From Thermoanaerobaculia bacterium (GTDB taxonomy: Bacteria > Acidobacteriota > Thermoanaerobaculia > Multivoradales > Multivoraceae): a stretch of DNA of 64,000 nt. Both the position numbers and the translations under genes were made by a program. This document shows positions 4,371 to 44,726 of this stretch, piece after piece. The notes under the pieces are model-generated. The model searched no databases. It had not been told where the DNA came from and saw only the letters and a program-made list of their open reading frames with translations. The stretch covers positions 3,967 to 67,966 of the forward strand of contig CALOFD010000029.1 of assembly GCA_942492505.1 (NCBI GenBank), given 5' to 3'. Within the stretch, counting starts at the first letter, position 1, and every line of letters starts with the position of its first letter.

Positions 4371-4426
4371 GGTTCGGCTCCGGGTAGGGTGGAAGGGGGC
4401 CTGGGGCGGTCCCAGATTCGCGGGTC

Positions 4427-4843
4427 TCAGTCGATGATCCTGTAGCTCACCTGGACCGTTCGATCCTCGGTGAAGGGGCGCTGGTAGACGGTGACTCCAT
4501 CCGGGTGGAGAGGATAGGCGACCTCGAGTGCAGAGTCGCCCAGCCACGACAGGACGAGATCGACAGAGCAGCCCGTGGTCGAAACGGGCTGGAAATCGTC
4601 GACGGCCTTCTCGAGATCGAAGGTCTCGAGGGTCGGGTGAACGTCGACCCGCTGCGAACACCAACCAGGAGCGCCTCCGCTCATGACGGCATAGCGAGTC
4701 GCCGTCCATCGGCCGTCCGGCGATTCCGCCTGGTCGAGCATCTCGGAACTGCTCATCCTGGAGACCGTCATGCATGCGCCTCCGGCGACCGTCATCACTG
4801 CCAGACAGGCGCCGATACCGTAGAGAAAGGACCGCAGTTCCAT
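4427..4843 (-). CDS. Hypothetical membrane-anchored or exported protein
   Basis: 138 aa; N-terminal hydrophobic helix; SPDGRWTA and W-(x)n-L-x-W-L-x-D pattern; codirectional with neighbours. Confidence 0.65.
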   Translation of the reverse strand: MELRSFLYGIGACLAVMTVAGGACMTVSRMSSSEMLDQAESPDGRWTATRYAVMSGGAPGWCSQRVDVHPTLETFDLEKAVDDFQPVSTTGCSVDLVLSWLGDSALEVAYPLHPDGVTVYQRPFTEDRTVQVSYRIID

Positions 4844-4879
4844 CCCTTGAGCATATCGGGATGGCCGCAGGCTCGCTCG

Positions 4880-5758
4880 TCAGAGCAGTCGACCGCGCAC
4901 CGACTCGAAGACCTGACCTCCGACGAGCACCTCGACCCGGTCGCCGACGGCTCGCCCTCGAACCAGGAGTTCCGAGGGGCGCCCCATCTGGACTCCCTGT
5001 TCGATCCGCAACTCGAAGGGCGCTGCGAAGAAGCGGTGATGAGCCAGGTAGTGACCCACGGCGTTCGTGGCGCTGCCGGTGGCCGGGTCCTCGCGCAGCC
5101 CGTTGGCCTCGAAGAACAGCCGCGCCGCGAGATCGCTCGGCGAACCTTCGGCCTGTCGACAGAACAGGTAGACGCAGGGGTCGAGACCCTGTCGTTCGAA
5201 CGGAGTCCATTCGGCAACGTCGAGACGGGCGCGACTCAGGGCATCGGGCGAGGCGAGCGGTACGATCAGGAAGTCGATGCCGGCCCGGACCTTCTGCGGC
5301 GGCCCCTGCGCGGAGATATCGCTGGTGTCGAGAGAGAGGACGCGCGCCGCCTGCTCGACCGAGAAGACGGTCTCGAACTGGGCGGCAGGGCCGAGAAGGT
5401 GGCCTCGGTCGCCCGGCAACGGTCCATCGAAGGTCACCGGAATGGGCCCGACGGGAAGATCGAGGACCACTTCGGTCGGGGTGTCCGAACAGATCTGATG
5501 GCGGATCAACCAGGCGGTTCCGAGGGTTGGATGACCGGCGAAGGGAAGTTCGCGCGCCGGGGTGAAGATGCGCACCGGGTAGCTACCGTCGGCGTTGGCC
5601 GCTCCGGTGATGAAGGTCGTCTCTGAGTAGTTGGTCTCGAGAGCGATGGCCTGCATCTGCTCGGTGTCGAGGTCGCCGGCGTCGCGAACCACGGCCAGCT
5701 GATTGCCGGCGAGCGGCCTGGGTGCGAATACGTCGAGAATATGGAAATCGTGTGGCAT
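4880..5758 (-). CDS. PhzF family isomerase/epimerase
   Basis: DVFA..GNQLAV, NYSETTF, RIFTP..ELPFAGHPTLG and EDPATGS motifs. Confidence 0.92.
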   Translation of the reverse strand: MPHDFHILDVFAPRPLAGNQLAVVRDAGDLDTEQMQAIALETNYSETTFITGAANADGSYPVRIFTPARELPFAGHPTLGTAWLIRHQICSDTPTEVVLDLPVGPIPVTFDGPLPGDRGHLLGPAAQFETVFSVEQAARVLSLDTSDISAQGPPQKVRAGIDFLIVPLASPDALSRARLDVAEWTPFERQGLDPCVYLFCRQAEGSPSDLAARLFFEANGLREDPATGSATNAVGHYLAHHRFFAAPFELRIEQGVQMGRPSELLVRGRAVGDRVEVLVGGQVFESVRGRLL

Positions 5759-5868
5759 CTGGTTCCTCCGTTTCCTTGTCCGCCAGTCTAGATCGGACGC
5801 CTCGGTTGCGAGTCTTCTGCTCGAAGCATTTTGTGCTCGAGCCTGTTGCGCAATAGAGTTCGCGCTAC

Positions 5869-6573
5869 ATGGCCGATCTGATCGAGCGCTCCCGCCGCGA
5901 CCGAGTCCTGAAGTTCCGGCTCGTTGCCGGCGAGATGAACGTGCTCCGTCTGTCGACGGTGCGAGCCCTGAAGGCGTACTTTCGAGAAGCCGAGGCCGAT
6001 CCGACGGTGGATGCCATCGTGTTGCTCGGCGGCGAGAAGGCGTTCAGCTCCGGACTGGACAATGCGGTTCTCTACAGCGGTGGACGCGCGGCCGACGAAC
6101 TCACCCTCGAGATGGGCGACCTTCTGTACGACATGTACCGGTCGAAACTGCGCATCGTCTCCGGGTGCGCCGGCCATGCGGTGGCCGCGGGCGCGATGCT
6201 TCTCCTCGTTTCGGATCTCCGCTACGGCGCCACGGGCGACTACCGGATCGGCTTCAGCGAAGTCGCACAGGGATTGGCCCTGCCCGAACTGCCGGTGCTC
6301 CTGGCGCGCGATCGGCTCGGACGGCGCTACCTCCAGTCTGCGACGGTTCTCGGTCGTCTCTGTCGCCCGTCGACCGCGGTCAGCGTCGGCTTTCTCGATC
6401 GGGTCGTGGACCCGGAGGATCTCGAGGAGACCGCAATGGAAGCCGCGCAGTCCCTGACCGAGCTGGACGCCGACGCCTATGGCGGCTCGATCGAGACAGT
6501 CCGGGGCGCGACGCTTCGGCGAATGTCCGAGTTGCTCGAGGCCCGTCGAACGGAGTTGGCGCTGTCGAGCTGA
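5869..6573 (+). CDS. Crotonase/enoyl-CoA hydratase family protein
   Basis: FSSGLD, GHAVAAGAMLLL.SD.R and IGFSEV..GL motifs. Confidence 0.85.
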   Translation: MADLIERSRRDRVLKFRLVAGEMNVLRLSTVRALKAYFREAEADPTVDAIVLLGGEKAFSSGLDNAVLYSGGRAADELTLEMGDLLYDMYRSKLRIVSGCAGHAVAAGAMLLLVSDLRYGATGDYRIGFSEVAQGLALPELPVLLARDRLGRRYLQSATVLGRLCRPSTAVSVGFLDRVVDPEDLEETAMEAAQSLTELDADAYGGSIETVRGATLRRMSELLEARRTELALSS

Positions 6574-6728: not shown

Positions 6729-7439
6729 CTACTCCTGTCGCAGGACGTCGGCGCCGGGAAGTTCGATCCACCCGGCGGTGTCGTTGCCGCAGAGCTGGGG
6801 TGAGACTCGTCGCAGATTGTCGGCGAACACTCTCGGCTCTGTTACGAGGTCCGAAGCGAGCAGCCCGGTCAGGGCCGCGAGTTCCGCGTCGGGTGGCACC
6901 CTCTTGCCGGTGTTCTCCTCGTACGACGCTGCGATTCGAACCATTCGCGCGTCGTCGTTGGCAGCCGGGAAGCTCCTCTCGGCAGTCAGGGCGACGGCGA
7001 CTTCGACGGTCAGCGTCGCATCCTCCGAACGGGCTCGATCGAGGATCGCGGCCGCCCGATGGCTCACGATCTCGAGCAGGTGATCGCCGGCGTCGGATCT
7101 GATTTCGGCGTCCAGCATCCTCTCGACCTCGTGTACGAAGCGCGCTGCGACCGCGACGATGCATTCGGCGAGCACGCGCTGGAGCGCGGCTTCGGATTCG
7201 GCGTAGGAGCCCGGCGCCATGCTCGCGAAGGGGCGCAGCAGGCGTCGTCGCAACTCCAGGACCGCCGGCAAGCGGGCCTGGACCTTCTCGGCTCCGGTGG
7301 CGACGGCCTCAGCGGCCGCCTGGAGCAGGGCTTCGAGGTCCTCCGATCGGTCGTACTGCCGCCCGTGCCTGCCTCGCCATTCCGTGGCCTGGATGAGGTT
7401 GTCGAGCATGCTGGGTCGCTTGGTTTCGTCGTTCTTCAT
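6729..7439 (-). CDS. Hypothetical alpha-helical protein
   Basis: Probable start ATG 7439 (MKNDETKRP); coding-like composition; no family recognised. Confidence 0.55.
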   Translation of the reverse strand: MKNDETKRPSMLDNLIQATEWRGRHGRQYDRSEDLEALLQAAAEAVATGAEKVQARLPAVLELRRRLLRPFASMAPGSYAESEAALQRVLAECIVAVAARFVHEVERMLDAEIRSDAGDHLLEIVSHRAAAILDRARSEDATLTVEVAVALTAERSFPAANDDARMVRIAASYEENTGKRVPPDAELAALTGLLASDLVTEPRVFADNLRRVSPQLCGNDTAGWIELPGADVLRQE

Positions 7440-7687
7440 GGTGGGGTTCTCGGTCCGGAAGAGACGGTTGGAAGCAATTCGGTACATCCCATCCTCCGAT
7501 CTGAATCGAGTTCGGAGGGTCACCCCTGGCGGGGCTCCCTCAGGAGACGGAGGGGCCATCCTTGGATCCCCCTCGGTGTCTCCGGGCACTACGATCCCAG
7601 TTCGATCCGAAGCCCGGAAGAACTGTTGTCGGTCATTTGTCTAGCCGTTTGGGGCTAGATCGATTCGAGGGTCCGGGGGTCGGTTCG

Positions 7688-8410
7688 TCAGGGAGAGACC
7701 TGTCGAAAACGCCGCTCCGCGGCTCGCAGGGTCGGTTTGATCGCGAGTGTCCATTCCAGATAGCCGCGCTCCGAGAGGCCGCGACCGTCTTCGGAGAAGA
7801 GGTCTCGGCGACTCTCGCCCCGGCTGTCGACTCTCGCGGCCGTGGGGTCGACGAACCAGAGGTCGGGGTGCTTCGCGGTCCACTCGGAGATTCCACGATT
7901 CGCTTCGTGGACCCGATCCGGAGGGGCGGGCGCGACGAACTCGGGAACGATGGAAACGAACACGATCTGGGTCGTGGGAAGGCTTTGCCGGACCCGTTCG
8001 ACGAACGTCTGGAACCGGAGAACGACCTCCTGGGAGGTTGCTCCCGCGCGCAGGTCGGCGTCACCGGCGCTCAAGATGATGGTCGAGGGCTCGAAGGGCA
8101 GGATCAGATCGCCGGCGAAGAAGGTGGTGTCGTCGATCCGAGCGCCGCCGAAGCCCCGATTGACGGCTCGGTAGTCGGAGAACCACTTCTGCACGTCCCA
8201 CTGCCATGCCGTGCGGCTGCCGGCGAGCACCACGATTCCCTTGGGAATCGCCTTCCAGGTCATCTCCTCCAGGTATCCGGGCACCGACGGTCGCGAGCTT
8301 GCGCCGGCCTCGAGCCAGCGTTCGGGAGGCCCGGTCGGTTCCGGCTCCTCCTGGGAATGGAGCGCGGTGGCCAGGAGCAGCAGGCCGATCACGAGGCGAA
8401 GAACTCTCAT
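7688..8410 (-). CDS. Secreted SGNH/GDSL-fold protein, catalytic residues apparently lost
   Basis: Signal peptide from ATG 8410 (MRVLRLVIGLLLLATALHS); SGNH blocks recognisable (LAGSRT, NRGFGG, SAGDADL, FSEDGRGLSERGY). Confidence 0.8.
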   Translation of the reverse strand: MRVLRLVIGLLLLATALHSQEEPEPTGPPERWLEAGASSRPSVPGYLEEMTWKAIPKGIVVLAGSRTAWQWDVQKWFSDYRAVNRGFGGARIDDTTFFAGDLILPFEPSTIILSAGDADLRAGATSQEVVLRFQTFVERVRQSLPTTQIVFVSIVPEFVAPAPPDRVHEANRGISEWTAKHPDLWFVDPTAARVDSRGESRRDLFSEDGRGLSERGYLEWTLAIKPTLRAAERRFRQVSP

Positions 8411-10034
8411 CCGGCCTCCGGGAAGGTTTCCATGTAGCTCTCGATCGCCTCTTCCGATCCGCAGATGTAGACCGCATCTTCGGCCTCGAAGCGAAAGTCC
8501 TCCGGCAGCCTCACCCACAGGTTCTCACCCCGTTCGACAGCCACCACCGAGGAACCGGTCCGACGTCGGATGTGGAGGTCGGCCGGATTGCAGCCCGCCA
8601 CGGCGGCGCCCGAGGTTCGCAGAACCTTGAGCTGTGGGTTGACCGAAATGCTCTCCTGGCCCAGCAGGCGACCGGTGAGGAGCTGCTGCGAGACCTGTGA
8701 GATCGACAGGGCGAAGTCGGCGCCGGCGCGGTGCATGCGTTCCACGTTGGAGGCTTCATTGACCCGCGCGATGATCGGGATGCGAGGCGCGAACTCGCGC
8801 AGTACCAGGGTGGCGAGGAGCGTGGCGCTGTCGCTCCCGACGGCGAGAATGACTGCTTTGGCCTCCTCGATGCGTTTCGACTGGAGCAGGCGGTGGTCGG
8901 CGATGTCCCCGACGATGTCGACCCCCGGCATTCGACGCTCGTCGAGCGTCGTGACGCTTTCGCCGACCGAGGTGAGGATGGAGGCGACTGTGCTGCCGAC
9001 TTCGCCGAAGCCCGCGATGAAGAAGGGGCGTTCTGTGTCGGGACTTCGTGTGTCGGCGACCTCGGAGAAGCGGATCACGTTCTTCTCGTCTCCCGCGACG
9101 ATCAGGATGCTGTCCGCTTCGAGCGGCCGATCGGGTGGCAGGGGAGAAACGAGTTCACCCTGAATCCACTGTCCGATGATGTTGACCCCGATTCGACCGA
9201 CCTCGGCCTCACGAAGGGTCTTGCCGACGATCGAGCTGCTGCGGTCGAGCTTCATCTCGGAGACGGTCAGTCGCGCTCCCAGTGCCTGGGCGCCGACCAC
9301 ACGCGGACTCACTTTGTCGCTGGCGTGGGCAGAGAGGGCGGCGGCCAGAATGTGCCGTGGCGTGAAGACGGCGCTGGCGCCTGCCAGGGAGATCGCCTTG
9401 CGATGGCGGGGCTCCTCGACGAGCGAGAAGATCTCCCCGGTGAACTGGGCTTGTCGGAGTGCCAGTGTGATGGCTGCGTTCTCGGCCGCCGGTTCGTTGA
9501 CCACCACGGCTCGAACCCGATCGAGTTGAGTCCTTTCCAGGACGCCGTCGGAGACCGATCCGTGGACCACCGTGCGACGCTCTTCCATCAGCAGACGAGC
9601 CGGTTCTCGTCGGACTCGATCACGACGGCGGTGAGGCCGTGACGATCGAGCTCCTGGGCCAGTCCGTCGACGGCCGGTCCCCAACCGAAGATGAGGACGC
9701 CGCGATCGAACTTGGGAGTGACTCTTGGCAGGCGGCTCTGGAAGCGTTCTTCGAGGGCCGGCAGGAGATAGACGGGGAAGACCAGGAACATGAGACACAG
9801 TCCGACGAACTGCAGCCCGACGACGAAGACGACCATGATGGGGTGAGTCCAGGTGGAGTCGCGACCGTAGCCGGTGGTCGACAGGGTCTCTCCCGCCCAC
9901 TCGAGGCTCTGCCAGAAGCCGCGTTCCTTGCCCTCGAGGACCGCCATTCCAGTGCGGTAGATCAAGGCCGCCGCCACGATCAGGATCGCCAGGCCCACTC
10001 CGAGGGCGAGCAATCGTTGTTCGGAGCGTCGCAT
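8407..10034 (-). CDS. K+ channel (2TM pore) with tandem TrkA-N/TrkA-C (RCK) domains, split by a frameshift at ~9590-9602
   Basis: Selectivity filter STTGYG and IFGWG Rossmann motif in 9588..10034; the frame continues as 8407..9588 with a second GFGEVG Rossmann motif and TrkA-C repeats. Confidence 0.85.
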
Positions 10035-22688: not shown

Positions 22689-24326
22689 CTACTTGCTGCG
22701 GTAGGGGGCGTACAGGCTGGGAACCTGCTCCGCTCGGTAGGAAGCCCAGCCGATGGCGGGATCGTCGATGACGATCTCGAGGACCTTCTCGGGCGGATCG
22801 GTGTGCGTGACCTCTTCGATCTTCGTCCAGTGCTGGGCGCCGGCGAAGTTGGCCGTCGGGTTGCCTTCGGCGTCTCTCATCAGGCCGCCGTGGACGACCA
22901 GGATGTTGCCGGTCTCGGGCAGGGTGTCGGCCTCGCTGATGAAGGGCGACAGGATCCGGTTCTCTCCGGACTCGCCGTAGGACCACACCTGGCGCACCGT
23001 TCCCGCTTCCTCGTCGATGGCGTACTCGACCACCCGACTCCAGTTCTCCTCGTCCGGGACCGGAGGATTCGGAGGGAAGACCGGTCGCTGGTTGTCGTAG
23101 AGAAGCAGGGTTCCCTGCGGAGTCCATTCGACGGCGTGCTGGTTGCAGAACCACTCGAGGTCGCCTTCCGGTTGCAGCAGGAGGTCCGACCAGGGTTCGC
23201 GCCAGCCGTCGGGCATGCCCAGGATCCATTCGAGTTCGCCACTGGCCAGGTCGAGCTTGAACACCGCGCATAGGGGATTGCTCGAAGTGAGCATGTCGTC
23301 GGTTTCGGGCAGATAGTGCAGGGCGTTGGTATGGGTCCAGTCGAAGCCGGGCGTGTCGAGAACGTCCTGGTAGGTCTCGGCGTAGAAACCCACCTGGGCC
23401 GAGCCGTAGCCCCAGCGACGATCGTCGAGGATGTCGAAGTATTTCCAGTCCCGGAGCACCTCGCCGGTGTCCGAGTCGATCTCGATCAGCCGGTCGCCGA
23501 TGACGTTGGACTCGACGATCTCCGGCTCGGGCATGCCGAGAGCCTGCGGCCAGTCCAGTCGTCGGACCTCGGTGGAGAGGATGAAGAGATTGCCGTTCGG
23601 CGCTTCGGTCATGTCGTGGTGGAACGACTCGGCGTCGACCGGAATGCTGTCTTCCGGGATGTTCTCTTTGGGAATCCCCGTGCTGTGCCACTGCCGAACG
23701 GTGTTGCCGAGCATGTCGATCTCGCGGGCCAGGCCGACGCGGTCCGTCTGGTAGGCGAGGTTGCCGTTCCGCAGGACTCGCGGCTCGTCGAGGCTGTGAT
23801 CGACCTTGTAGAACCAGACTACGTCACCGTTGCCGTCGAGGCCGACGATGGCTCCGTAGCTGTCGTCGGGAAGGAAGCCGTTGAACCGGAAGACCGGAAT
23901 CAGGGTGATTCCGGGCTCTCTTCGGGCCTGCCGGTTGACCCGTACCTCGATGCGCGGGAAGTCGTCGGGCAAGGGCGGCGTGGTGATCGCGATCGGTTCG
24001 AGGACGGAGGTCTTGCCGTTCTCACCTTCGAGAGTGACGGTCACGGTCGTCGTGCGCTCGGGTCGCATCCCGAGGACCGGAACCGTGTGGGTCGTGCGAG
24101 CTTCTGAGGACGGGGTGGCCTCGCTGAGGTTCTCGCCGTCGTCGAGGGTCAGATGAACCGTGGCGGGCTGGTCGGTCTCGAAAGACAGCAGGGCCGTCAG
24201 GGGTGCGTTGCCGGAAGGATTCTCGGCGACGTCGACCGGGCCGGTCGCCACGGGCGGCGTTCCGCAGCCGATCGAGATGGCCAGAATCGAGATCAGAACG
24301 GTCGAGGCGATGAGTTTGTGTTGCAA
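22689..24326 (-). CDS. Arylsulfotransferase (ASST) family lipoprotein
   Basis: Lipobox ISIGC; N-terminal Ig-like domain (NAPLTA..F.T); FHHD, DWTHTNAL, NQHA and L.YDN beta-propeller motifs. Confidence 0.85.
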   Translation of the reverse strand: MQHKLIASTVLISILAISIGCGTPPVATGPVDVAENPSGNAPLTALLSFETDQPATVHLTLDDGENLSEATPSSEARTTHTVPVLGMRPERTTTVTVTLEGENGKTSVLEPIAITTPPLPDDFPRIEVRVNRQARREPGITLIPVFRFNGFLPDDSYGAIVGLDGNGDVVWFYKVDHSLDEPRVLRNGNLAYQTDRVGLAREIDMLGNTVRQWHSTGIPKENIPEDSIPVDAESFHHDMTEAPNGNLFILSTEVRRLDWPQALGMPEPEIVESNVIGDRLIEIDSDTGEVLRDWKYFDILDDRRWGYGSAQVGFYAETYQDVLDTPGFDWTHTNALHYLPETDDMLTSSNPLCAVFKLDLASGELEWILGMPDGWREPWSDLLLQPEGDLEWFCNQHAVEWTPQGTLLLYDNQRPVFPPNPPVPDEENWSRVVEYAIDEEAGTVRQVWSYGESGENRILSPFISEADTLPETGNILVVHGGLMRDAEGNPTANFAGAQHWTKIEEVTHTDPPEKVLEIVIDDPAIGWASYRAEQVPSLYAPYRSK

Positions 24327-24360
24327 CGTCTTCTCCTACAGGGCCTTGGGGGCACGGGAT

Positions 24361-25818
24361 CTAGAGGTAACCGAGACTCTCGAGTCGTTCACTGTCTGCG
24401 TCCTGTTCCGCCGGTGCGACCGCGCGAGCGGCGTCGAGGCCGTTCTCGCGGCAGTGGGACCGGTAGTTGGCCAGCACCCGTCGCATCGCGTCGAGGCGAT
24501 CGGGCTGCTCGGACGAGAGGTCGTTCTGCTCGCCGGGGTCGGCAGAGAGATCGAAGAGCTGTTCGACCACCGGATCGGGCCACAGATCGTCGGGTGAGGC
24601 AGGGGTTTCTGCCGTTACGCGGAGCCGATCGATGTAGTCCGAGGAGATCGATCTGCGCTCGCCGAGCGGGCAGTCGATCGAGGTCGCGATGTACTTCCAG
24701 TCGCCGTCCCGGACGGCGCGGTGGATACAGCGCTCGCGGATCACCAGTTCCGCGATTCGCGGCCGTCCCGACGACACCGCCCGCAGCCCGCCTTCGTCGA
24801 TCTGCAGCAGCGACTCACCGTCGCCTGTCGCCTCGATCAGTCCGGCCGCGGTGCGAATGCTCGGTGAGAGATCGACCAGCGATACCGGGCCGTTCACCCG
24901 GCGTGGCTCGAGGCCGGGAGCGGAGATCAGCAGCGGAACTCTCAGCGACTCTTCATGGAGCGTCCACGCATGGCCGAGCCAGCCGTGGTCGAGGAACTCT
25001 TCGCCCTGGGAACCGGTGACGACGATCAGCGTGCGGTCGGTGAGCTCGCGAGCTTCGAGACCCTCGACGAGTCGTCGAATCGCGATATCGGCGGCCAGCA
25101 CTTCGGCGTCGTAGGCTGCAACGAGCCAGGCGATCGCCGGGTCGTCGAGAGTCGGCGTGGCGCCGCTCTCGAGTCGATCCTGTTGCTCGGGAACCGTCGT
25201 CGGGCCGGCGTCGGCGGGCAGGAAGAGATCGAGGTCCTCCGCCGTCGGCGAGTAGGGCTGGTGGGGCTCGGCGAGATGGGCATAGATCAGGAACGGCTCG
25301 CCGGCGATGTCGTCGAGGAACTGGAGTGCCTGGTCGGCCACCTCGGCTGCGTTGTTCGAGTCGTCGATCCCCACATCCTCGAAGCCGCGCGTGAAACCGC
25401 GCTTGGTCAGCAGCGACTGGTTCGAGAAGAAGCCCGTCCTGCCGCCGTTCCTGCGGAAGTCGTTGGCCAGGGTGGAGGCGGCGCTGGAGGGCTCGGCCTC
25501 CATCAGTCCGGTGCTGCCGCCGCTGGTCGGCAGTCGGCCGGTCAGGATCGCGGCGACCGACTGGGAGGTGTAGCTCGACGGTGCCCAGGCGGCGTCATAG
25601 ACGATCGACTGGCTCGCGAAGGCGTCGAGGAAGGGAGAGGTCGGACGGTCGTAGCCGTAGAGGCCGAGGTGATCGGCGCGCAGGGAGTCGACCACGATGA
25701 CCACGACGTTCGAGATCGGGGGTCGAGCGGTGTCCTCCTCGCCCCCGCATGCCGACGCCAGCGCGAGGGCGGCGATCGCCAGGCAACGGAGGAGTCGTTT
25801 CGTCGAGAGGCGGGTCAC
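24361..25818 (-). CDS. Sulfatase-like (alkaline phosphatase superfamily) lipoprotein with non-canonical active site
   Basis: Lipobox LASAC; NVVVIVVDSLRADHLG, RVPLLI, LFDL..DPGEQ and LESLGYL. No CxPxR motif. Confidence 0.85.
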   Translation of the reverse strand: MTRLSTKRLLRCLAIAALALASACGGEEDTARPPISNVVVIVVDSLRADHLGLYGYDRPTSPFLDAFASQSIVYDAAWAPSSYTSQSVAAILTGRLPTSGGSTGLMEAEPSSAASTLANDFRRNGGRTGFFSNQSLLTKRGFTRGFEDVGIDDSNNAAEVADQALQFLDDIAGEPFLIYAHLAEPHQPYSPTAEDLDLFLPADAGPTTVPEQQDRLESGATPTLDDPAIAWLVAAYDAEVLAADIAIRRLVEGLEARELTDRTLIVVTGSQGEEFLDHGWLGHAWTLHEESLRVPLLISAPGLEPRRVNGPVSLVDLSPSIRTAAGLIEATGDGESLLQIDEGGLRAVSSGRPRIAELVIRERCIHRAVRDGDWKYIATSIDCPLGERRSISSDYIDRLRVTAETPASPDDLWPDPVVEQLFDLSADPGEQNDLSSEQPDRLDAMRRVLANYRSHCRENGLDAARAVAPAEQDADSERLESLGYL

Positions 25819-25950: not shown

Positions 25951-27252
25951 TCAGCTCGCGGGTTCGACGATCGCCTGGTAGGTCAGGCGACGCGACAGCG
26001 AGCGCACGTCGGGCCGGCCCTGTCCGAACTGCTGGATCATGCCGACGAAGACCAGGTCTTCGACCGGGTCGATCCAGAACCAGGTGCCGGCGGCGCCGCC
26101 CCAGTAGTACTCACCCTTCGAGATGCCGTCGGCGGCCACCGGGTCGATCACGACCGCGAAGTCGAGTCCGAAGCCCTGTCCGGGAGACATCTCGGGAACG
26201 TCGCGCGGCATCTGGTTGCGGCGCATCAGGTCGATGGTCGAGGGCGCGAGAATGCGCACCCCGTCGAGTTCACCGCCGTTGATGATCATCTGGCAGAAGC
26301 GCATGTAGTCGGTGGTTGTCGACACCAGGCCGCCGCCGCCACCGAAGAAGGTCTGGGGCTCGGTGTAGACGGTGCCTCCCTCGAAGCCCTCGCGGGCGAA
26401 GAGGCTGCCGTCCTCGGCATAGGCGTAGACCTCGGCGAAGCGGTCGACGCGATCTTCGGGGACCCAGAACGCGGTGTCCTTCATTCCGAGCGGGCCGAAG
26501 AGGCGCTCCTGCAGGAACTCGTCGAAGGGCTGACCGGAGAGCACCTCGACGAGATAGCCCTGAACGTCGACGGCAACACTGTAGTGCCAGCGCGATCCGG
26601 GCTGCTGGCGCAGCGGCACCTGGGCCAGGTTGTCGATCATCTGCTTGAGATTGTCTTCACCCAGGATCCCGAGTTCGGTGTACTTCTCGTCGACCGCCGA
26701 CTGGCTGAAGATGCCGTAGCTCAGTCCCGCGGTGTGGCTCATCAGCTCGCGGATCGTCATGGGGTGGCGAGCCGGCTCGGTTTCGAGAGTGTCGAGGTTC
26801 TTGGCGACCTGCAGGTTGGCGAACTCGGGAATGTACTTGGCGACCGGGTCGGAGAGCTTGAACTTGCCCTCTTCATAGAGCGTCATCAGGGCGACCCCGG
26901 TGATCGGCTTCGACATCGAATAGATCCGGAAAATCGTGTCCTTCGCCATCGGCTTGCCCTCGGCGAGGTTCTGCGATCCGAAAGTCTCGAAGTGGGCGAC
27001 CTTGCCGTGCCGGCTGATCATGGTGGTGATGCCGGCGAGCTTGCCCTCGTCGACCAGTTCCTGCATCGCCTCGTTGAGGCGCTCGAGGCGTTCGCTCGAC
27101 ATGCCGACGGCTTCCGGAGCGACCGACGCGAGATTGCGCGTGTCCTCGCGCGGAATGTCGGCCTGGGTGGCCGTGTCGCAGGCGACACTGGTCAGGGTGA
27201 GAAGAAGAACGGCGGCGAGTGATGCCGCACGATGTGCAGTCAGATGCTTCAT
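25951..27252 (-). CDS. Serine hydrolase, beta-lactamase class C family lipoprotein
   Basis: SMSK (SxxK), W.YS, LFGPLGM.DT, GGGGLVST..DY and WGGAAGT.FWIDP; lipobox TSVAC. Confidence 0.92.
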   Translation of the reverse strand: MKHLTAHRAASLAAVLLLTLTSVACDTATQADIPREDTRNLASVAPEAVGMSSERLERLNEAMQELVDEGKLAGITTMISRHGKVAHFETFGSQNLAEGKPMAKDTIFRIYSMSKPITGVALMTLYEEGKFKLSDPVAKYIPEFANLQVAKNLDTLETEPARHPMTIRELMSHTAGLSYGIFSQSAVDEKYTELGILGEDNLKQMIDNLAQVPLRQQPGSRWHYSVAVDVQGYLVEVLSGQPFDEFLQERLFGPLGMKDTAFWVPEDRVDRFAEVYAYAEDGSLFAREGFEGGTVYTEPQTFFGGGGGLVSTTTDYMRFCQMIINGGELDGVRILAPSTIDLMRRNQMPRDVPEMSPGQGFGLDFAVVIDPVAADGISKGEYYWGGAAGTWFWIDPVEDLVFVGMIQQFGQGRPDVRSLSRRLTYQAIVEPAS

Positions 27253-27468
27253 GGAGATCCTCCCTGGGATCGTGATCGGATGGCTGGGAAGCCCCTATCT
27301 TAGTCCCTTCTCGGCGGGCTGTCTGCGGGGGTCGTCGTCGCCGGGCCGCCCAGGGGCGGGCTTCCAGCGCCTCCACTTGCCCCGCAGGCGCCCAACCATC
27401 AGGATAGAGAGACTGAGCGCCTCTCGGAACGAGGGGCGTCGAGCCGACCTGTGAAGCGAGAGTCCCCC

Positions 27469-28437
27469 ATGCTGCGATCCATCCTCCGCCCGTTGGCCGC
27501 CCTGCTGGCCACCTCGGCCCTGCTGTCCTCGACGGGTTCCACGCTCGCTTCTCCGGATTCCACCGAGGACGTCGTGCCTGCCTACGACGATGAGGGCCGC
27601 CTGCTTCTCCCCCAGGACTGGCAACGCTGGGTCCTGGCGGGGTCGTCGCTCGGACTCAGCTATACGGAAGGCGAGGCCGGTCGGGAACTCTTTCACCAGA
27701 CCCTGATCGAACCCACGGCCTACGATCACTTCGTCGAGACCGGGGAGTTTCGCGAAGGAACGATGCTGGCCCTGGTCCTGCACGATCTGGGGGAAGGAGC
27801 GACGCCGAGTCGGCGAGGCACCTATGCCGACGACCTGGCGGCGGTCGAGATGGCGGTGAAGGACTCGTCGAGACCGCGCGACGAGGCCTGGGCCTACTAC
27901 AACTTCGCCGGCACCGACGGTCTGGTGGAATCGGCGAGGGCCTTTCCCGCGCGCACCTGTCACGCCTGCCATGCCGAGCACGCCGCCTACGACAACGTCT
28001 TCATGCAGTTCTACTCCCTGCTGCGTTCAGCCGCTCCCGATCCGAGCCGATTCGAGACGGCAGCAGAGGTGGCGGTGGGGCACCCGACGGCGGTGGATTC
28101 GCTTTCCGGCGAGCCGCAGGCGATCGATCCCGAGGCCACTCTGGCCCTCGGGGGCCTCGATCCGGTGCAGCTGATCGAAGGTCGCAGCGAGATGGGCAAG
28201 GCCGAGATCATCGCCAGCCACGAGGGCCTGCTCTATCGCTTCCTCAGCGAGCCCTCTCGGGCCGCCTTTGCAGCCGATCCGGAGCGCTACAGCGTGCAGA
28301 ACGAAGCTTGCCTGGTCGTTCAGGGAGCCCCCAACGATCCGGCGGTCTTCGCCGTCCACGAAGGCCGCATCTACGGCTTCGCGACGCCCGGCTGTGTCGC
28401 CAGTTTTCTGGCCTCCCCCGCCAGCTACCTCGACTGA
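27469..28437 (+). CDS. Cytochrome P460/c'-beta family c-type cytochrome fused to a YHS domain
   Basis: Signal peptide; RLLLP.DW.RW...G, FREGT, CHACH heme motif near the domain end, FMQFY; then ALGGLDPV...YRF.S..R.AF...PERY (YHS). Confidence 0.8.
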   Translation: MLRSILRPLAALLATSALLSSTGSTLASPDSTEDVVPAYDDEGRLLLPQDWQRWVLAGSSLGLSYTEGEAGRELFHQTLIEPTAYDHFVETGEFREGTMLALVLHDLGEGATPSRRGTYADDLAAVEMAVKDSSRPRDEAWAYYNFAGTDGLVESARAFPARTCHACHAEHAAYDNVFMQFYSLLRSAAPDPSRFETAAEVAVGHPTAVDSLSGEPQAIDPEATLALGGLDPVQLIEGRSEMGKAEIIASHEGLLYRFLSEPSRAAFAADPERYSVQNEACLVVQGAPNDPAVFAVHEGRIYGFATPGCVASFLASPASYLD

Positions 28438-28468
28438 CCCGTCAGCGATCAGCCGGCGCGCTGAGTGA

Positions 28469-30520
28469 TCAGCCGCCCCCTCCGGCCGTCGCCTCGGCCG
28501 GCGCGAGGGCGGTTTCCTCCGACCCCTTCGGTGAGTGCTTCTCGAACCAGTAGCGCAGGTAGAGCTGGGTTCGCAGGAAGTTCGAGGGTTTCGAGGAAGT
28601 GCCGTGGTACTCCTCGTTGAAACGGACCATGGCGGTGGGGACCTTGCGCATCTTGAGCGCCTGGTAGTACTCCTCGGTCTGAGACATCGGAGTGCGAAGG
28701 TCCTTGACGCCGGTCATCAGCATGGTCGGCGTCGTCACGTTGCCGACGTACATCAGCGGCGAACGGCGCAGATGCTCGGAGGGGTCTTCCCAGAAGTTCT
28801 TCTCGAAGTTCCGGTACCAGTAGTTCGGTCCGTCGGTCGTGCCGACGAACGAAAGCCAGTTGGTCACCGGACAGTTGGCCGACGCGGCCGCGAAACGGTC
28901 CGTATGGCCCACCACCCACGACGTCAGCACGCCGCCGCCTGAACAGCCGTAGACGAACATCCGCGATTCATCGACGTAGCCGCGCGACAGAACCTGGTCG
29001 ACACCGGCCATCAGGTCGTCGTAGTCCTTCGACGGGTAGGCCCACAGGATCTCATTGCCGAACTCGCTGCCGTAGCCCGACGAGCCGCGCGGGTTGGTGT
29101 AGAGAACGACGTAGCCGCGAGCCGCATGCTCCTGCCAGGAGAAGCTGAATCCGACGTTGTACATGCCATGGGGGCCGCCGTGGATCGCCAGCATCAAGGG
29201 GTACTGCTTCGTCGGATCGAAGTCCGGCGGCTTGACGATCCATCCCTGGATCTCGAGGTCGTCGACCGAGGTATAGCGGATCTCTTCGACGTCGCCGAGG
29301 GTGACGCCTTCGAGGATGTCGTCGTTGACGAAGGTCAACTGCTCGAGTTCCCCGCTGCCGGTGTCGATGGTGACGACGTCGCCCGCCTCATACGGCGAAG
29401 TGGCGGTGCCCACCGCGGTGGTCCCGGAGAAGCTGTCGACCGTCAGCATGTGAACGCCCGTCGTGACCTGTCGCAGCCTGCCGTCGAGGTCGGCTCGCCA
29501 GAGGTTTCGCGTCCCGCTGTCCGAAGCGTTGAAGTAGACGGCGCTCGAATCGTCGGCCCAGCGCAGGTCGGTGGGCGAGCGGTCGAGGTCGTTGCTGATC
29601 ACGCGCTGTTGGCTGCCGTCGATCCGCATCACCGACAGTCGTGAGTCGGTGTAGGTGTCGCGACTCCAGTCGAAGCCGGTGTAGGCCACCCACGAGCCGT
29701 CCGGGGAAACGACCGGTGAGGAGTCGGGACCGCTGCGGGTGGTCAGCTGGCGCAGCGTACCGTCGCGGGTGTCGACGGCCCAGACGTCGGACTGTCGGAT
29801 CAGGTATTCCCAGTCTTCGTCGCGCAGCGCCGAGAACAGGATTTCGCCGCCATCGGGGGTCCAGGAGAGCCCGTCCTGGCCGTGGTTGAAATCACCTTCG
29901 GTCAGCTGGCGTGGCGTGCCGCCGCTCGCCGGAACGGTGAAGACATGCTGGAAACCCTCTTCGATGAAGCCCTGACGGTCGCGCCGATAGACCATTCGAT
30001 CGACGATGCGGGGACTCTCGGTCCACTTCGCTCCTTCCGGGGCCTTCGGCATGTCGATCTTCCAGGCCTCTTTCGCCGGTACCAGCGCGACGAAAGCGAT
30101 CCTTTCGCCGTCGGGAGACCATTCCAGCGATCCGGGCGTCTCTTCGACTCGGGTGATCTGGGTCGTTCCGCCCTCGCTGTCCATCCAGCGCACGAAGATC
30201 TGTTGCCCCTGGGGTTCTCCAGCAGCGAGGTAGGCGAGGCGGGTGCCGTCGGGAGACCAGCGCGGCGAAGAGCCCTCGAGCAGGAAGCGATTGCGGCTTC
30301 CGTCGGCATTCATGATCCAGATCGCGGATTTCCAGTCGTCGGCGATCTTGTCGACCCATCGTCGGGCGTACACGATGCGGGTCCCGTCGGGCGAGATCCG
30401 GGCATCGCTGACGCGTTCGAAATCGAGCCACTGCTGAAGCTGGAGCGTATCCTCGGAGGGTGCGGCTCGAAGGCCGGTCGCCATGGAGAGGAGGAGGGCG
30501 AAGATGAGTCCGTGGCGCAT
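28469..30520 (-). CDS. S9 family (prolyl oligopeptidase/acylaminoacyl peptidase) secreted peptidase
   Basis: Signal peptide; PD40/WD repeats (SPDG); IHGGPH, NPRGS.GYG, GCSGGG nucleophile, D.RT and EEYHG. Confidence 0.93.
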   Translation of the reverse strand: MRHGLIFALLLSMATGLRAAPSEDTLQLQQWLDFERVSDARISPDGTRIVYARRWVDKIADDWKSAIWIMNADGSRNRFLLEGSSPRWSPDGTRLAYLAAGEPQGQQIFVRWMDSEGGTTQITRVEETPGSLEWSPDGERIAFVALVPAKEAWKIDMPKAPEGAKWTESPRIVDRMVYRRDRQGFIEEGFQHVFTVPASGGTPRQLTEGDFNHGQDGLSWTPDGGEILFSALRDEDWEYLIRQSDVWAVDTRDGTLRQLTTRSGPDSSPVVSPDGSWVAYTGFDWSRDTYTDSRLSVMRIDGSQQRVISNDLDRSPTDLRWADDSSAVYFNASDSGTRNLWRADLDGRLRQVTTGVHMLTVDSFSGTTAVGTATSPYEAGDVVTIDTGSGELEQLTFVNDDILEGVTLGDVEEIRYTSVDDLEIQGWIVKPPDFDPTKQYPLMLAIHGGPHGMYNVGFSFSWQEHAARGYVVLYTNPRGSSGYGSEFGNEILWAYPSKDYDDLMAGVDQVLSRGYVDESRMFVYGCSGGGVLTSWVVGHTDRFAAASANCPVTNWLSFVGTTDGPNYWYRNFEKNFWEDPSEHLRRSPLMYVGNVTTPTMLMTGVKDLRTPMSQTEEYYQALKMRKVPTAMVRFNEEYHGTSSKPSNFLRTQLYLRYWFEKHSPKGSEETALAPAEATAGGGG

Positions 30521-40660: not shown

Positions 40661-41359
40661 TCAGAACAGGCGGCGATCCAGATACAGCTCTGCGATCGAC
40701 AGGCTGTTGACGATTCCGTGCGCCACGATGCAGACCCAGAGATTGCGTCCGAAGACGAGGAAGCCGGCGCCCAGGAGAGTGCCCAGGAGCGCAGTCACGA
40801 GAACTCCCGCCAGACCCTGGTAGGCGTGGGCGAGACCGAAGAGGACGGCCTGCGTCGCGAGGGCTGCCAGTTCGGCGCCCCGGCCGACCTTCCCGCGGCC
40901 GGCAAAGGCCGACGCGAGGCGTTGCCGGATGAATCCCCGGAAGATCAGCTCCTCGCCGACGGCAGCCGGGATCCAGGCGATGAAGAGAAACCAGAGAGCG
41001 AGGCCGACGTTGCCCCGTAGATTCTCGAAGGCAGACAGGTCGGGGAGACCGAAGTGGACTTCGAGGGTTTTCTGGAAGAGAAACGCGACGCCGAGCATCG
41101 CGGCGGCGAGTACGATTCCGGCCGGCAACGAAGCGGGTCCGGGCCGCCGCCCCAGGCCGATTGTTTCCAGGGACTGTCCTCGTCGCGCGAGCAGCAGGCC
41201 GACGATGCCGGCTGCGACCAGGCTGCCGAGCGGAACGACGGCCATCGAACCGGTGAGCGCAGCCAGGACCTGGAAGGTCGCGATCATGGAGAACAGCACC
41301 ACGATCACTTCGAGCCAGGCTCGACCCGACGATGGTTGAACTACGCTGGTCTGCCCCAC
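40661..41359 (-). CDS. CPBP (Abi/CAAX protease-like) intramembrane metalloprotease
   Basis: EELIFRG, LFGLAH.YQG and I.AHG..N motifs; multiple TMs. Confidence 0.88.
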   Translation of the reverse strand: MGQTSVVQPSSGRAWLEVIVVLFSMIATFQVLAALTGSMAVVPLGSLVAAGIVGLLLARRGQSLETIGLGRRPGPASLPAGIVLAAAMLGVAFLFQKTLEVHFGLPDLSAFENLRGNVGLALWFLFIAWIPAAVGEELIFRGFIRQRLASAFAGRGKVGRGAELAALATQAVLFGLAHAYQGLAGVLVTALLGTLLGAGFLVFGRNLWVCIVAHGIVNSLSIAELYLDRRLF

Positions 41360-43197
41360 AGATAGCCCTGGCCGTAGCCGACCTGCATCTCCCGCAGCAG
41401 GGCCAGATCGTCGGAGTGCTCGATCCCCTCGGCCACGATTTCGGCGTCGAGCGAGGTGGCGATCTTGATGAGTCTGCGAATCGAGCGCGCCTTTCCGCTA
41501 CTGCGTGAGATGCCCAGGACGTACTTCGGGTCGATCTTGACGATGTCGGGTTCGAGCAGTACCAGGGATTCGAGCGAGCTACGCCCGAAGCCGACGTCGT
41601 CCATCGCCACGAGGATTCCGGCTTCACGGAAGGCCCTCACCTGGTCCTGCAGGCAGGCCGGGTCGCTGATGAACTGTTGCTCCGAGATCTCGACGCAGAA
41701 GACCGAATCGTCGTCGGTCTGCAACATCGGAATGAGGCGGTCGGGCGAGGTGTCCAGGAGGGTCGAGGGAAAGAGGTTGACGTGGAAGCGGCTGCCCGGC
41801 TCGAGTCCGGCGCTGGCTGCCACGCAGCCCTTCAGGCATTTGAGGTCGGCCATCGTCAGGAAGTTGCCTTCGAGGCAGACCCTGAAGAAGTCCTTCGGCA
41901 TTTCGAAGGGTCCCGTCGGCCCACGGCTCAGCATCTCGTAGCCCGCCTTCGTGCCGTCGGAGAGTCGATAGATCGCCTGACTGACGGCGCGGAAGGGTTC
42001 GTCCTCGCGCAGCAGTCTCTGAACGTCTTCGATGCTGCCGGCGCGGCGACTTAGGGTGCGCTCCGCGAGTGTCGGCTCCCTGCCGTTGGTGGCGGGAGTC
42101 TCGACCGCCATCGAAACGCGGTTGCCGCCCATGGACTTGGCGTCGTGCAGCGACATCCGGGTCAGGGTCAGGACCTCCTCGATCGAACACGTCTCGTAGG
42201 GCAGGATGCTCGTGCCGATCGAGGCCGTGATGTTGATCAGGTCGGAAAAGACGACCAGTGGGCTCTGTGCCACGGCCAGGCGAATGCGGTCGGCGACTCT
42301 CTGGGCCTCGGCCAGTCGGGTTTCGGGGAGGAAGACGAGGAACTCGTCGCCGCCGACGCGGCCGATTCGGTCGGACGGGCGCAGTGAACCGGCGAGTCTC
42401 TTCGAGATCTCGGTGAGGACGACGTCTCCGACTGCATGGCCGAGCTGGTCGTTGATGCGCTTGAAACCGTCGAGATCGACGAGGGCGGCCACGACGACGG
42501 TGCCGAGCCTCTGGCTTCTGCTCATTTCGATCGCCAGTGCCTTCTCGAGGCCGCGGCGGTTGAGCAGCTCCGTCATCGGGTCGACGCTGGCCAGGCGCGT
42601 GAGCCGCGCGTTGACGTCCTGCAGTTCCTGGGTCAGCGCTCCGAGTTCCTCCCGGCGTCGTTTCTCCGTGTCGAGCTGGGTCGTCAGCTCGCGCTGTCGG
42701 GCGCGCACGAACTCGTCGAACGTCGACATCAGGAAGTTCAGGATCCGATCGGGTCGGGCGTCGATCCCGAAGAGCTGCCCCATGAAGTCGAAGCTCACCA
42801 CGCCGGCCTCATCGGTTTCGTCCTGCTCGCCGCAGGTTGCCAGGATCGCGGCGATCCGGGCTGTGAGGTGGGAGGCGTCATACGGCTTGGTGAGGAAGTT
42901 GTCGGCGCCGCATTCGAGGCCGCGAACGATGTCGGTCGCTTCACTCAGCCGGGTGAGCAGAATGACGGGAACCGCCTTGCGACCTTCGCCGTGCTTGATG
43001 GCATGACACAGCTCGTGCCCCGACATCCCGGGCATCTGGACGTCACTCAACACGAGGTCGAAGGCCTGTGAGTCGAAGATCTCGAGCGCCGTTTCACCGT
43101 CGGCCGCATGAACGACCTCGTAGCCCTCCCCCTCCAGGACCAGTGTCAGCTCCTGAGCCTGGGTCGGACTGTCTTCTGCGATCAGGACTCGCGTCAT
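41341..43197 (-). CDS. Response regulator with diguanylate cyclase and phosphodiesterase domains (REC-GGDEF-EAL)
   Basis: REC (AEDS, SDVQMP, FLTKP); GGDEF with RxxD I-site (RPSD-x5-GGDEF); EAL-type domain (EML, DDVGFG, KID, EGIE). Confidence 0.93.
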   Translation of the reverse strand: MTRVLIAEDSPTQAQELTLVLEGEGYEVVHAADGETALEIFDSQAFDLVLSDVQMPGMSGHELCHAIKHGEGRKAVPVILLTRLSEATDIVRGLECGADNFLTKPYDASHLTARIAAILATCGEQDETDEAGVVSFDFMGQLFGIDARPDRILNFLMSTFDEFVRARQRELTTQLDTEKRRREELGALTQELQDVNARLTRLASVDPMTELLNRRGLEKALAIEMSRSQRLGTVVVAALVDLDGFKRINDQLGHAVGDVVLTEISKRLAGSLRPSDRIGRVGGDEFLVFLPETRLAEAQRVADRIRLAVAQSPLVVFSDLINITASIGTSILPYETCSIEEVLTLTRMSLHDAKSMGGNRVSMAVETPATNGREPTLAERTLSRRAGSIEDVQRLLREDEPFRAVSQAIYRLSDGTKAGYEMLSRGPTGPFEMPKDFFRVCLEGNFLTMADLKCLKGCVAASAGLEPGSRFHVNLFPSTLLDTSPDRLIPMLQTDDDSVFCVEISEQQFISDPACLQDQVRAFREAGILVAMDDVGFGRSSLESLVLLEPDIVKIDPKYVLGISRSSGKARSIRRLIKIATSLDAEIVAEGIEHSDDLALLREMQVGYGQGYLWGRPA

Positions 43198-44726
43198 GGA
43201 AGGGAGCCTCCTTCGTCACTGAGATGGGGCTGGGTTGCGGAGCCTTCAGCGAGGGCCGCGTTGGCGAGAGATTCGGGATGGAGGAGCCAGGCGACCTCGC
43301 CGCCCTCGAGCTGGGCGACCGCCCGCACCAGTGAGGAGCGCAGGCGTGGGCCGAGAGGACGCATGTCGAGATCCTTCGGGGGAGACACCCGCTCGCAGGA
43401 CAGCAGCAACGTTCGTTTGCCGATCTGCAGGTGGAGGAGTTCCCGGTCGAAGAGCTCGGCTGACGAGATCGTCGACCCGCTTCCCAGCAGGGCGTCGAGT
43501 CCGGCCACCGCCACCGGCCGGCCTTCTTCGATCACGGCCGGTCGGCCGAGAAGCCAGCGAACCTCGGAGGCCGCGATCCTGCGAAGACCGGTCACGTGCA
43601 CTTCCTCGATGGCGAAGATCCCCTCGCTCGAGAGCAGGAGCCGAGCTCGAACCGTGGGCCGTTCGAGTGGCAGATTGAGCGTGAAGGTTGCACCGGAGCC
43701 CGGTTGGGAACGGACCTGGATCTCTCCGCCTCGTTGCTCGGCCCAGGCTCGGACGGCATCGAGGCCGACGCCGCGCCCCGACGACGCGGTGACTTCCGGG
43801 CTCGTCGAGAGTCCGGAGACGAACGCGAGTTCGGCGCGACTCGCATTGTCGGCAGGAACGTCGACGCCGCGACCGCGGGCCACCGCTGCCAGGGAGTCGA
43901 GGTCGAGTCCACCGCCGTCGTCGCGAACCGAGATGTGGACGGCGTCCGGTTTCGCCACGGCGCCGATCGTGATGCGACCGCGGACCGGCTTGCCGGCGGC
44001 TCGCCGCTCGATCGGCAACTCGATGCCGTGGTCGACGGCGTTTCTCACCAGGTGACCGAGCGGCTCCCGAAGCTGCTGGCCGAGAGGGTCGGCGACCTTC
44101 CAGGGAGCCCCTTCGAGGACCACGTCGACTCGCTTGCCGCTGTCGTCGGCGAGTTCCTCCGCCAGCTTGCCGAGTTCGGAACAGACAGCCTCGAAGGCCC
44201 GGCCTGCGGTGATTCGGGGTTCGACGGTCGCGGTGGCCTCGGTGGAGCCTCGATCGGATGGCTGGGTGGGCCGATCCGGCTGCGGGACCGGTGCGCGGGT
44301 CGACGGTTCGTCCGCCAACCGTCGCAGCGCGGATTCGAGTTCGGCGTTGACCGTCGCGAGAGCGAGACGGTCCGCATCGCCGTCGTCTCGAAGGCGCTCG
44401 CTGGTCGTGGCCAGACCGTCGACCGTGGCGAGGAGCAGGGAAACGAGAGGTGGAGAGGTCGAAGCTTCCCAGGCCTGATCCCGCAGAACTCCGAGGACGC
44501 TCTCCGCCAGGTGACAGCTGGTCTCGATGTCGTCCAGCCTCGCCGAGCGTGCGGCGCCCTTGAGGCTGTGCATCGTTCGCAGCAGGGATTCGACCAGCTG
44601 GCCGCGGACCACCGAGGAGGCGGAGTTCTGCAGCGTGATCAGATCTCGACTCAGGATTCGAACCGCCTGGTCGAGTTCCTCGACGAACGTCGCCCGGAGC
44701 TTCCTGGTGATGTCCTCGTCGCTCAT
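43194..44726 (-). CDS. cheA: Compact CheA-like histidine kinase (Hpt, HATPase, degenerate CheW domain)
   Basis: Hpt MHSLKGAAR; N box HLVRNAVDHG; G1 DDGGG; G2 SGRGVGLD; GSGATFTL.LP. No recognisable P2, P3 or REC. Confidence 0.85.
   Translation of the reverse strand: MSDEDITRKLRATFVEELDQAVRILSRDLITLQNSASSVVRGQLVESLLRTMHSLKGAARSARLDDIETSCHLAESVLGVLRDQAWEASTSPPLVSLLLATVDGLATTSERLRDDGDADRLALATVNAELESALRRLADEPSTRAPVPQPDRPTQPSDRGSTEATATVEPRITAGRAFEAVCSELGKLAEELADDSGKRVDVVLEGAPWKVADPLGQQLREPLGHLVRNAVDHGIELPIERRAAGKPVRGRITIGAVAKPDAVHISVRDDGGGLDLDSLAAVARGRGVDVPADNASRAELAFVSGLSTSPEVTASSGRGVGLDAVRAWAEQRGGEIQVRSQPGSGATFTLNLPLERPTVRARLLLSSEGIFAIEEVHVTGLRRIAASEVRWLLGRPAVIEEGRPVAVAGLDALLGSGSTISSAELFDRELLHLQIGKRTLLLSCERVSPPKDLDMRPLGPRLRSSLVRAVAQLEGGEVAWLLHPESLANAALAEGSATQPHLSDEGGSLP

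Follow-up and report, generated by a model that had tools for sequence, protein, structure and literature searches.

A lysine-less cytochrome P460-fold haem protein fused to a tandem YHS module in a Thermoanaerobaculia bacterium, and its predicted relation to engineered cross-link-deficient P460s

The cytochrome P460/c'-beta superfamily serves as a model of how one fold can be tuned between hydroxylamine oxidation, a source of N2O, and gas binding. Three features govern the oxidation of hydroxylamine (NH2OH): a Lys cross-link to the haem, a distal carboxylate and a cap over the pocket (PMC11928373, Table 2). According to the same 2025 review, the carboxylate acts as a proton relay in the P460 of Nitrosomonas europaea (NeP460), where it is a Glu, and is absent from all three solved c'-beta proteins, while none of the P460 variants tested to date that lack the cross-link oxidises NH2OH. 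The K106L/A131E mutant of the P460 of Nitrosomonas sp. AL212 (NsP460) binds NH2OH with a Kd of 7.7 μM, and nitric oxide (NO) as well, with no turnover of NH2OH, and peroxidase-like activity is found both in the K70A mutant of NeP460 and in the natural NeCP-beta (PMC11928373). A natural replacement of the Lys by Leu is also described, in NpCP-beta (Leu105, ferric Soret band at 400 nm), together with a "halfway-house" class that has a polar pocket and no cross-link (PMC11928373). The sequences in the analyses cited there are described as proteobacterial (PMC11928373), and a text search of the review found no mention of fusions or additional domains. Here we describe a gene at positions 27469–28437 (+ strand) of a 64-kb stretch of a Thermoanaerobaculia contig (CALOFD010000029.1; the whole stretch is called the window below), whose product joins a P460-fold haem c domain lacking the cross-linking Lys to a tandem YHS module.

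The coding sequence is complete, with 322 codons and a stop, as judged from the list of open reading frames, the Pfam matches and the homologues, and its coordinates were confirmed by translation. The open reading frame is present as an earlier note on this DNA had claimed, and the strings quoted there are all found in the translation, namely FREGTMLALV (residues 94–103), CHACH (C164–H168), ALGGLDPV (226–233), PERYSVQNEAC (271–281) and GCVASF (308–313). The ATG at 27469 agrees with the N-termini of the homologues, the full-length ones of which share 45–77% identity with the protein; translation could alternatively begin at an in-frame GTG at 27451.

The haem domain comprises residues 37–190 (27577–28038), and its assignment to the P460-type fold, proposed in the earlier note, is borne out by sequence profiles and structure prediction alike. 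The Pfam model Cytochrome_P460 (PF16694) matches residues 48–178 with an E-value of 1.8e-17 and 64.4 bits, the cut-off being 27. A phmmer search against the PDB returns the cytochromes P460 of Nitrosomonas sp. AL212 and N. europaea with E-values of 3e-27 to 1e-25 and about 35% identity, the c'-beta protein of Thermus with an E-value of 0.01, and the P460 of Methylococcus with an E-value of about 1. In the AlphaFold2 (AF2) model of the whole protein, built on 103 family sequences, the predicted local distance difference test score (pLDDT) exceeds 90 across most of the domain. Foldseek superimposes it on the Nitrosomonas P460 structures 2je2, 6e0x and 6amg with template modelling (TM) scores of 0.80–0.83; the matches to the solved c'-beta proteins have E-values of 1e-4 to 1e-5 and 14–22% identity.

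The residue at the cross-link position can be assigned from solved chains, as two PDB chains of NsP460 differ at residue 106, 6e0x reading GTVIVKEL and 6w6n, which Foldseek labels as the K106L/A131E mutant, reading GTVIVLEL. In the HMMER alignment, the column so defined (NsP460 K106, NeP460 K70) is occupied by Leu102 (codon 27772–27774) in the strand G97-T-M-L-A-L102-V-L, which holds no Lys at all. The Leu that the earlier note had placed here by its own alignment is therefore retained. The column of the distal proton-accepting carboxylate was fixed in the same manner, by the A131E and A131Q mutant chains that differ at this one position, and it is Glu127 (codon 27847–27849) that falls in the column of NsP460 residue 131 and of NeP460 Glu96/97. 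The haem c attachment motif CHACH (27958–27972) supplies C164, C167 and the proximal ligand H168. The capping residue of NsP460, Phe76, corresponds by alignment to Arg72.

Leu102, Glu127, C164, C167 and H168, together with C281 of the C-terminal module, are invariant in the 103 aligned members of the fusion family, and H76, H105 and C309 are present in at least 90% of them. In a wider set of fusion and stand-alone relatives, the Lys column holds Leu or Met in 88 of 88 loci and never Lys, in a sample biased towards close relatives, since the Leu was part of one of the two patterns used for the scan; CxxCH is invariant in all 88 loci and Glu127 is kept in all but two. The columns of H76 and H105 covary, with His/His in the fusions and the nearest stand-alone relatives and Asn/Gln or Asn/Arg in most Vicinamibacterales, and the two residues may form a paired site near the haem.

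Comparison with the described proteins places the domain between the two named classes. With NsP460 and NeP460 it shares the fold and the CxxCH motif, and with NeP460 and the A131E mutant the Glu at the proton-relay position, but the cross-linking Lys is missing and with it, as far as the alignment can tell, the P460 cofactor. The protein further differs from these two in its linker and 100-residue YHS module, and in coming from Acidobacteriota rather than from an ammonia oxidiser. The c'-beta proteins McCP-beta (6hih), TtCP-beta (7ead), NeCP-beta (7s5o) and NpCP-beta are alike in having the P460-type fold, CxxCH and a hydrophobic residue in place of the Lys. However, the similarity to the solved c'-beta proteins is much weaker (E-values of 0.01 or worse in phmmer), these proteins have a single domain, and the three solved ones carry Ala or Gly where the present family has an invariant Glu. 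Because the domain is nearer to the Nitrosomonas P460s than to the solved c'-beta proteins and retains the distal Glu, we assign it, on its aligned residues, to the "halfway-house" form with a predicted polar pocket rather than to the classic hydrophobic, NO-binding c'-beta type. The earlier reading of a P460/c'-beta domain with an NO- or redox-binding haem accordingly holds for the missing Lys and needs correction as to the nearest relatives and the distal Glu. The closest counterpart is the K106L/A131E mutant, with which the protein shares both the Leu at the cross-link position and the Leu/Glu pair as a whole; by alignment it is the natural counterpart of that mutant, its Leu being invariant throughout a family and not engineered.

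The haem domain is followed by a linker of about 32 residues (191–222; 28039–28134), variable in length and sequence in the alignment and of low predicted order, with pLDDT values of 53–65 for residues 201–220 and below 50 at residues 205–213. Since the predicted TM score (pTM) of the whole protein is only 0.58 although both domains are modelled confidently, the model indicates that the linker is a flexible tether.

Residues 223–322, when modelled alone, give a pLDDT of 97 and a pTM of 0.87, and their predicted secondary structure (helices, hairpin, helix) is present twice, a sign of tandem duplication into two YHS-like repeats. The first of them (residues 223–274; 28135–28290; LALGGLDPV...YRFLSEPSRAAFAADPERY) follows the pattern GLDPV...YRFLSEP..AF..DPERY and has no Cys; toluene monooxygenase has a YHS segment with which it aligns weakly. 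The second (residues 275–322; 28291–28434) reads QNEAC281...HEGRIYGFATPGC309VASF..P..Y and holds both Cys residues, Cys281 (28309–28311) and Cys309 (28393–28395). The Cys-bearing YHS region of the earlier note is thus confirmed, and its layout is one of tandem repeats, the first without Cys and the second with two conserved Cys. Pfam YHS (PF04945) matches two stretches, the better being residues 298–321, with 28.9 bits in the whole protein, just below the cut-off of 30.3, and with 33.6 bits, above it, when the C-terminal 101 residues are searched alone. A search for a close homologue of the module among solved structures found none, only local YHS-like pieces in monooxygenase alpha subunits, adenylate kinase 9 and cilia protein repeats, L24e and LIM domains.

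In the TRASH type of YHS domain, the metal site is built from three Cys with the spacing C-x19-22-C-x3-C. The present module keeps two, spaced C281-x27-C309, and by sequence these appear to be the first and third positions of the triad, the middle one being Ala305. When HEGRIYGFATPGCVASF is locally aligned with the phenol hydroxylase YHS segment (HEGERYHFCSDGCCDIF), Cys309 meets the second of the three Cys of that segment and Ala305 the first. With the YHS/TRASH domains of the phenol and toluene monooxygenase alpha subunits and of metal-transport proteins the module has in common the Pfam YHS match and the hairpin-plus-helix fold; it differs in retaining two Cys of three, in being duplicated with a Cys-less first copy, and in its predicted periplasmic location.

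A further relative is the NCBIfam model NF041384, "YHS domain-containing (seleno)protein", a family found in a listing of prokaryotic selenoproteins, with "GxU" given as its motif. All 32 of the modules tested match it, all below its cut-off (best E-value 4.5e-11), and the window protein scores 29–33 bits against a curated cut-off of 70. The NF041384 proteins and the stand-alone double-YHS proteins share the layout GLDPV...Y.F.S...F..DP.RY followed by Q..G.C...Y.FA...C...F..P, in which both Cys are invariant, whereas the fusions have Q-N-x-T/A-C instead of G-x-C and score about 30 bits. The column of Cys281 reads G-x-C in the stand-alone relatives and E-A-C in the window protein, its correspondence to the selenocysteine being drawn from the motif.

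The module is itself widespread. A profile search over 1.84 billion cluster representatives gave 2,924 matches at E≤1e-3 and 730 at E≤1e-10. Numerous stand-alone module proteins, secreted and about 130 residues long, have the same layout, and both Cys are invariant in 16 of the 16 compared; relative to these, the fusion places the module C-terminal to a haem domain. In other proteins it precedes a DJ-1/PfpI domain or an unannotated domain of about 230 residues, and one module protein also carries a PSCyt1 haem c domain and leucine-rich repeats (examples of these module proteins are P0147, P0233, P0153, P0156, P0160 and P0140). The YHS module is an independent, mobile unit.

The fusion, for its part, is far from rare. 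A word-indexed search returned 510 homologues, and nearly all of the top 120 are proteins of 300–350 residues with PF16694 and PF04945 or a clear full-length match; the architecture is common to at least about 100 clusters at 90% identity. Few homologues have been named, and the names given are "cytochrome P460 family protein" and "YHS domain-containing protein". In the species-representative genomes, about 10 metagenome-assembled genomes (MAGs) carry the complete fusion, mostly MAGs of Thermoanaerobaculia, the class that includes Ca. Multivoradales and from which the closest relatives of the window protein come; the remaining ones are one "Deltaproteobacteria" MAG and one Vicinamibacterales MAG. 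These relatives, and a protein encoded in the window that matches the acidobact_VWFA model above its cut-off, point to Acidobacteriota as the probable origin of the window. Stand-alone relatives of 175–250 residues and 37–61% identity are numerous in Vicinamibacterales, Gemmatimonadales, Bryobacterales, Nitrospirales and Hydrogenedentota. In a neighbour-joining tree of the haem domain, which has no support values, fusion and stand-alone forms interleave, and the sequences place the fusion within a large Lys-less clade of mostly stand-alone proteins. The literature search found no paper naming both "cytochrome P460" and "YHS" or mentioning the fusion, and nothing relevant on P460 with Acidobacteria. 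The earlier note had not recognised the fusion and had allowed for its being common and characterised: it is common, with more than 100 full-length homologues, and at the same time uncharacterised in the literature, a sizeable family known here mostly from Acidobacteriota MAGs.

The N-terminus bears on where this chemistry would take place. Residues 1–27 (27469–27549) form a predicted Sec signal peptide, MLRSILRPLAALLATSALLSSTGSTLA, followed by Ser, with a basic start, a hydrophobic core and an A-x-A-like site; cleavage is predicted between TLA and S, and no lipobox Cys is present. All homologues have an equivalent N-terminus. The protein is therefore probably exported to the periplasm, as the earlier note had read from the sequence.

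Taken together, the data favour a periplasmic c-type haem without a cross-link that has small species of nitrogen or oxygen as ligands or is reactive towards peroxide, that is not an NH2OH oxidase, and that is tethered to a thiol pair or two-thiolate metal site; we give this reading a probability of roughly 0.6. It is in essence the coupling of a ligand-binding haem to a thiol or metal module that had been suggested earlier, and the domain calls, the residue conservation and the analogies drawn from the review keep it in first place. What the sequences show is the architecture, the residues and their conservation, the size of the family and the genomic neighbourhood of relatives, whereas we infer the spin and ligation state of the haem, its behaviour towards ligands and what the two Cys do. 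With Leu in place of the Lys, the domain would hold a c-haem of the usual kind, ligated by His and open on the distal side, and no P460 chromophore; the haem would probably be high-spin, with a ferric Soret band near 400–406 nm as in other cross-link-less forms. The pocket Glu would be the residue that relays protons in N. europaea P460. By analogy with K106L/A131E, the domain is expected to bind NH2OH, NO and carbon monoxide with no NH2OH turnover, and a reaction with peroxide is possible, as in other forms without the cross-link. Cys281, in a motif that has selenocysteine in relatives, and Cys309 may act as a redox-active thiol pair or as a two-thiolate metal site, and the tethered module could pass electrons or a ligand to or from either the haem domain or some partner.

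Several points weigh against this picture. The column of the Arg72 cap is variable in the family, which makes the geometry of the pocket uncertain, and the conserved Glu is hard to explain if the haem is a passive gas binder. AF2 docks the two domains with low confidence, as the pTM of the whole protein indicates, so that a direct contact between haem and thiols is unsupported. The conserved Cys pair of a secreted domain could be a mere structural disulfide. The match to NF041384 lies far below the curated cut-off, and Cys281 is assigned to the selenocysteine position by motif.

The genomic surroundings of the relatives raise another explanation. Among the 14 distinct fusion loci with enough upstream sequence, 11 have a PF06580 (LytS/AlgZ-type) kinase and a LytTR regulator immediately upstream in divergent orientation (L002, L003, L005, L006, L010, L012–L014, L016, L018, L019); the exceptions are L001, L007 and the window. 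The pair also flanks 12 stand-alone relatives, eight of them in the order kinase, regulator, P460-like gene (L021, L022, L025, L026, L030, L035, L037, L042) and four divergently (L023, L024, L034, L041). The sensor part of the kinase consists of four membrane helices with short loops; of the predicted outer loops, the first has an invariant HGH and the second an invariant QP..PV. Kinases with such short-loop, four-helix sensors often need an accessory protein. The haem/thiol protein could accordingly be a periplasmic co-sensor that detects NO, redox state, peroxide or a metal and signals to a kinase almost without a periplasmic domain of its own, an explanation to which we attach a low probability in spite of the frequency of the adjacency in both gene orders.

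One reason for this caution is found in the upstream sequences. A box of the form (C)CGTTCGCTGCA(A) is more than 50-fold enriched upstream of the P460-like genes. Within the 260 bp that precede these genes, the 8-mer TCGCTGCA reaches a density of 3.8 per kb, compared with 0.067 per kb elsewhere in the loci; for GTTCGCTGCA the two densities are 1.67 and 0.004 per kb. The boxes are often present in two or three copies, spaced by 20–21 bp and in either orientation (e.g., at -129, -104 and -84 in L006 and at -119 and -99 in L018), and the box is also present in loci with operon order, between the regulator gene and the P460 gene. Repeats of the CGTTCGCTGCA type resemble the sites of LytTR regulators such as the AlgR box CCGTTCGTC. 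We infer that the neighbouring LytTR regulator controls the P460-like genes in these relatives. As the boxes stand before the P460-like genes themselves, even in operon order, a regulated target fits at least as well as a co-sensor. The window copy, moreover, has neither kinase nor regulator of this kind within the 64 kb; position 27469 is not preceded by a CGTTCGCTGCA box, and a paired box is missing from the whole window. Either this copy is an orphan or the gene for its regulator lies elsewhere. The fuller version of the co-sensor proposal, in which Lys-less P460-fold proteins, with or without YHS, are the periplasmic signal-binding partners of an AlgZ/AlgR-like system whose kinase lacks a sensor domain and the YHS thiol switch reports the state of the haem, is somewhat less probable again and should be read as speculation; if true, Acidobacteriota and Gemmatimonadota would possess a new haem-based pathway that senses NO, peroxide or redox state outside the cytoplasm.

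Other arrangements recur among the relatives as well. In Gemmatimonadales (L063, L064, L068–L070, L079, L080, L088), the P460-like gene follows a BlaR1-type M56 peptidase with HEAT repeats, a third recurrent context beside the kinase/regulator pair and the feoB gene discussed below. In L001, a Thermoanaerobaculia chromosome (OY761158), the fusion gene begins 3 bp downstream of a DUF3604 gene, with neither kinase nor regulator as a neighbour; a second DUF3604 gene lies downstream on the opposite strand and a third further upstream (4196–5998 and 7021–8799 are noted). A separately encoded YHS module, which would give a Rosetta-stone pairing, was found within about 7 kb of none of the stand-alone P460-like genes.

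A role in metal handling was also considered, in which the YHS module binds Cu(I) or Fe and a low-potential haem oxidises or reduces the metal in the periplasm for uptake or detoxification, with the haem peroxidase EfeB of the EfeUOB iron-uptake system as an analogy. The YHS/TRASH folds bind metals, and Cys281 and Cys309 stand at two of the three canonical ligand positions, but the middle Cys of the TRASH triad is Ala305. CopC and CopD are encoded directly downstream of the fusion gene in L007; this link is limited to the one locus. In 14 Vicinamibacterales genomes (L032, L036, L038, L040, L044–L052, L054), feoB lies directly upstream, on the same strand, of a stand-alone P460-like gene, which suggests a link of the stand-alone Lys-less haem proteins to iron uptake; these proteins, however, form a different subclade that lacks YHS, and no metal-related gene flanks the window copy. 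For the window protein we therefore regard metal handling as unlikely.

The suggestion that the two Cys form no more than a structural disulfide and that the YHS module serves for docking or oligomerisation, all chemistry residing in the haem domain, can draw on the frequent exchange of a Zn site for a disulfide in small secreted domains and on the occurrence of the module with unrelated partners (DJ-1/PfpI, the PSCyt1 haem domain, unannotated domains), as would be expected of a generic adaptor. The use of selenocysteine in the matching motif of the NF041384 relatives would be unusual for a purely structural position, and we consider this suggestion quite improbable. Finally, a true hydroxylamine-oxidising cytochrome P460 with a cross-link through some other residue can be set aside almost entirely, since the kept catalytic Glu and the closeness of the solved Nitrosomonas P460s are countered by the invariant Leu in a strand without Lys, by the inactivity of the engineered Leu/Glu mutant, and by the lack of ammonia or hydroxylamine metabolism genes near the window gene.

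The preferred reading, a ligand-binding haem without a cross-link tethered to a thiol or metal module, gives the family a value beyond the single gene. On the residue assignments it would represent a naturally occurring equivalent of the engineered Leu/Glu mutant that lacks the cross-link, and one conserved in many genomes of Acidobacteriota. The fusion shows the P460 fold combined with a YHS module of two Cys; this module is widespread and has gone unstudied, and some of its relatives have selenocysteine. The regulatory link to LytS/LytTR systems offers a practical route to what "halfway-house" haem proteins respond to. The window gene is one intact member of this family without the usual regulator.

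As regards its own surroundings, the window gene stands by itself on the + strand, with a - strand gene on either side, one for a beta-lactamase-fold hydrolase and one for an S9 peptidase. The flanking genes encode an arylsulfotransferase, a sulfatase, the hydrolase, the peptidase and an ExeA-like ATPase, all but the last on the opposite strand; they were considered as functional partners of the haem protein and rejected, no link being apparent. A scan of 27150–28650 for promoters and terminators found no sigma-70-like site and only weak terminator-like hairpins. The adjacent arylsulfotransferase and sulfatase genes (22689–25818, - strand), upstream of the beta-lactamase-fold gene, may form a small sulfate-ester cluster. 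Further along, a response-regulator/GGDEF/EAL protein (41341–43197, - strand) and a CheA-like kinase (43194–44726, - strand) are encoded, which are unrelated to the LytS/LytTR pair.

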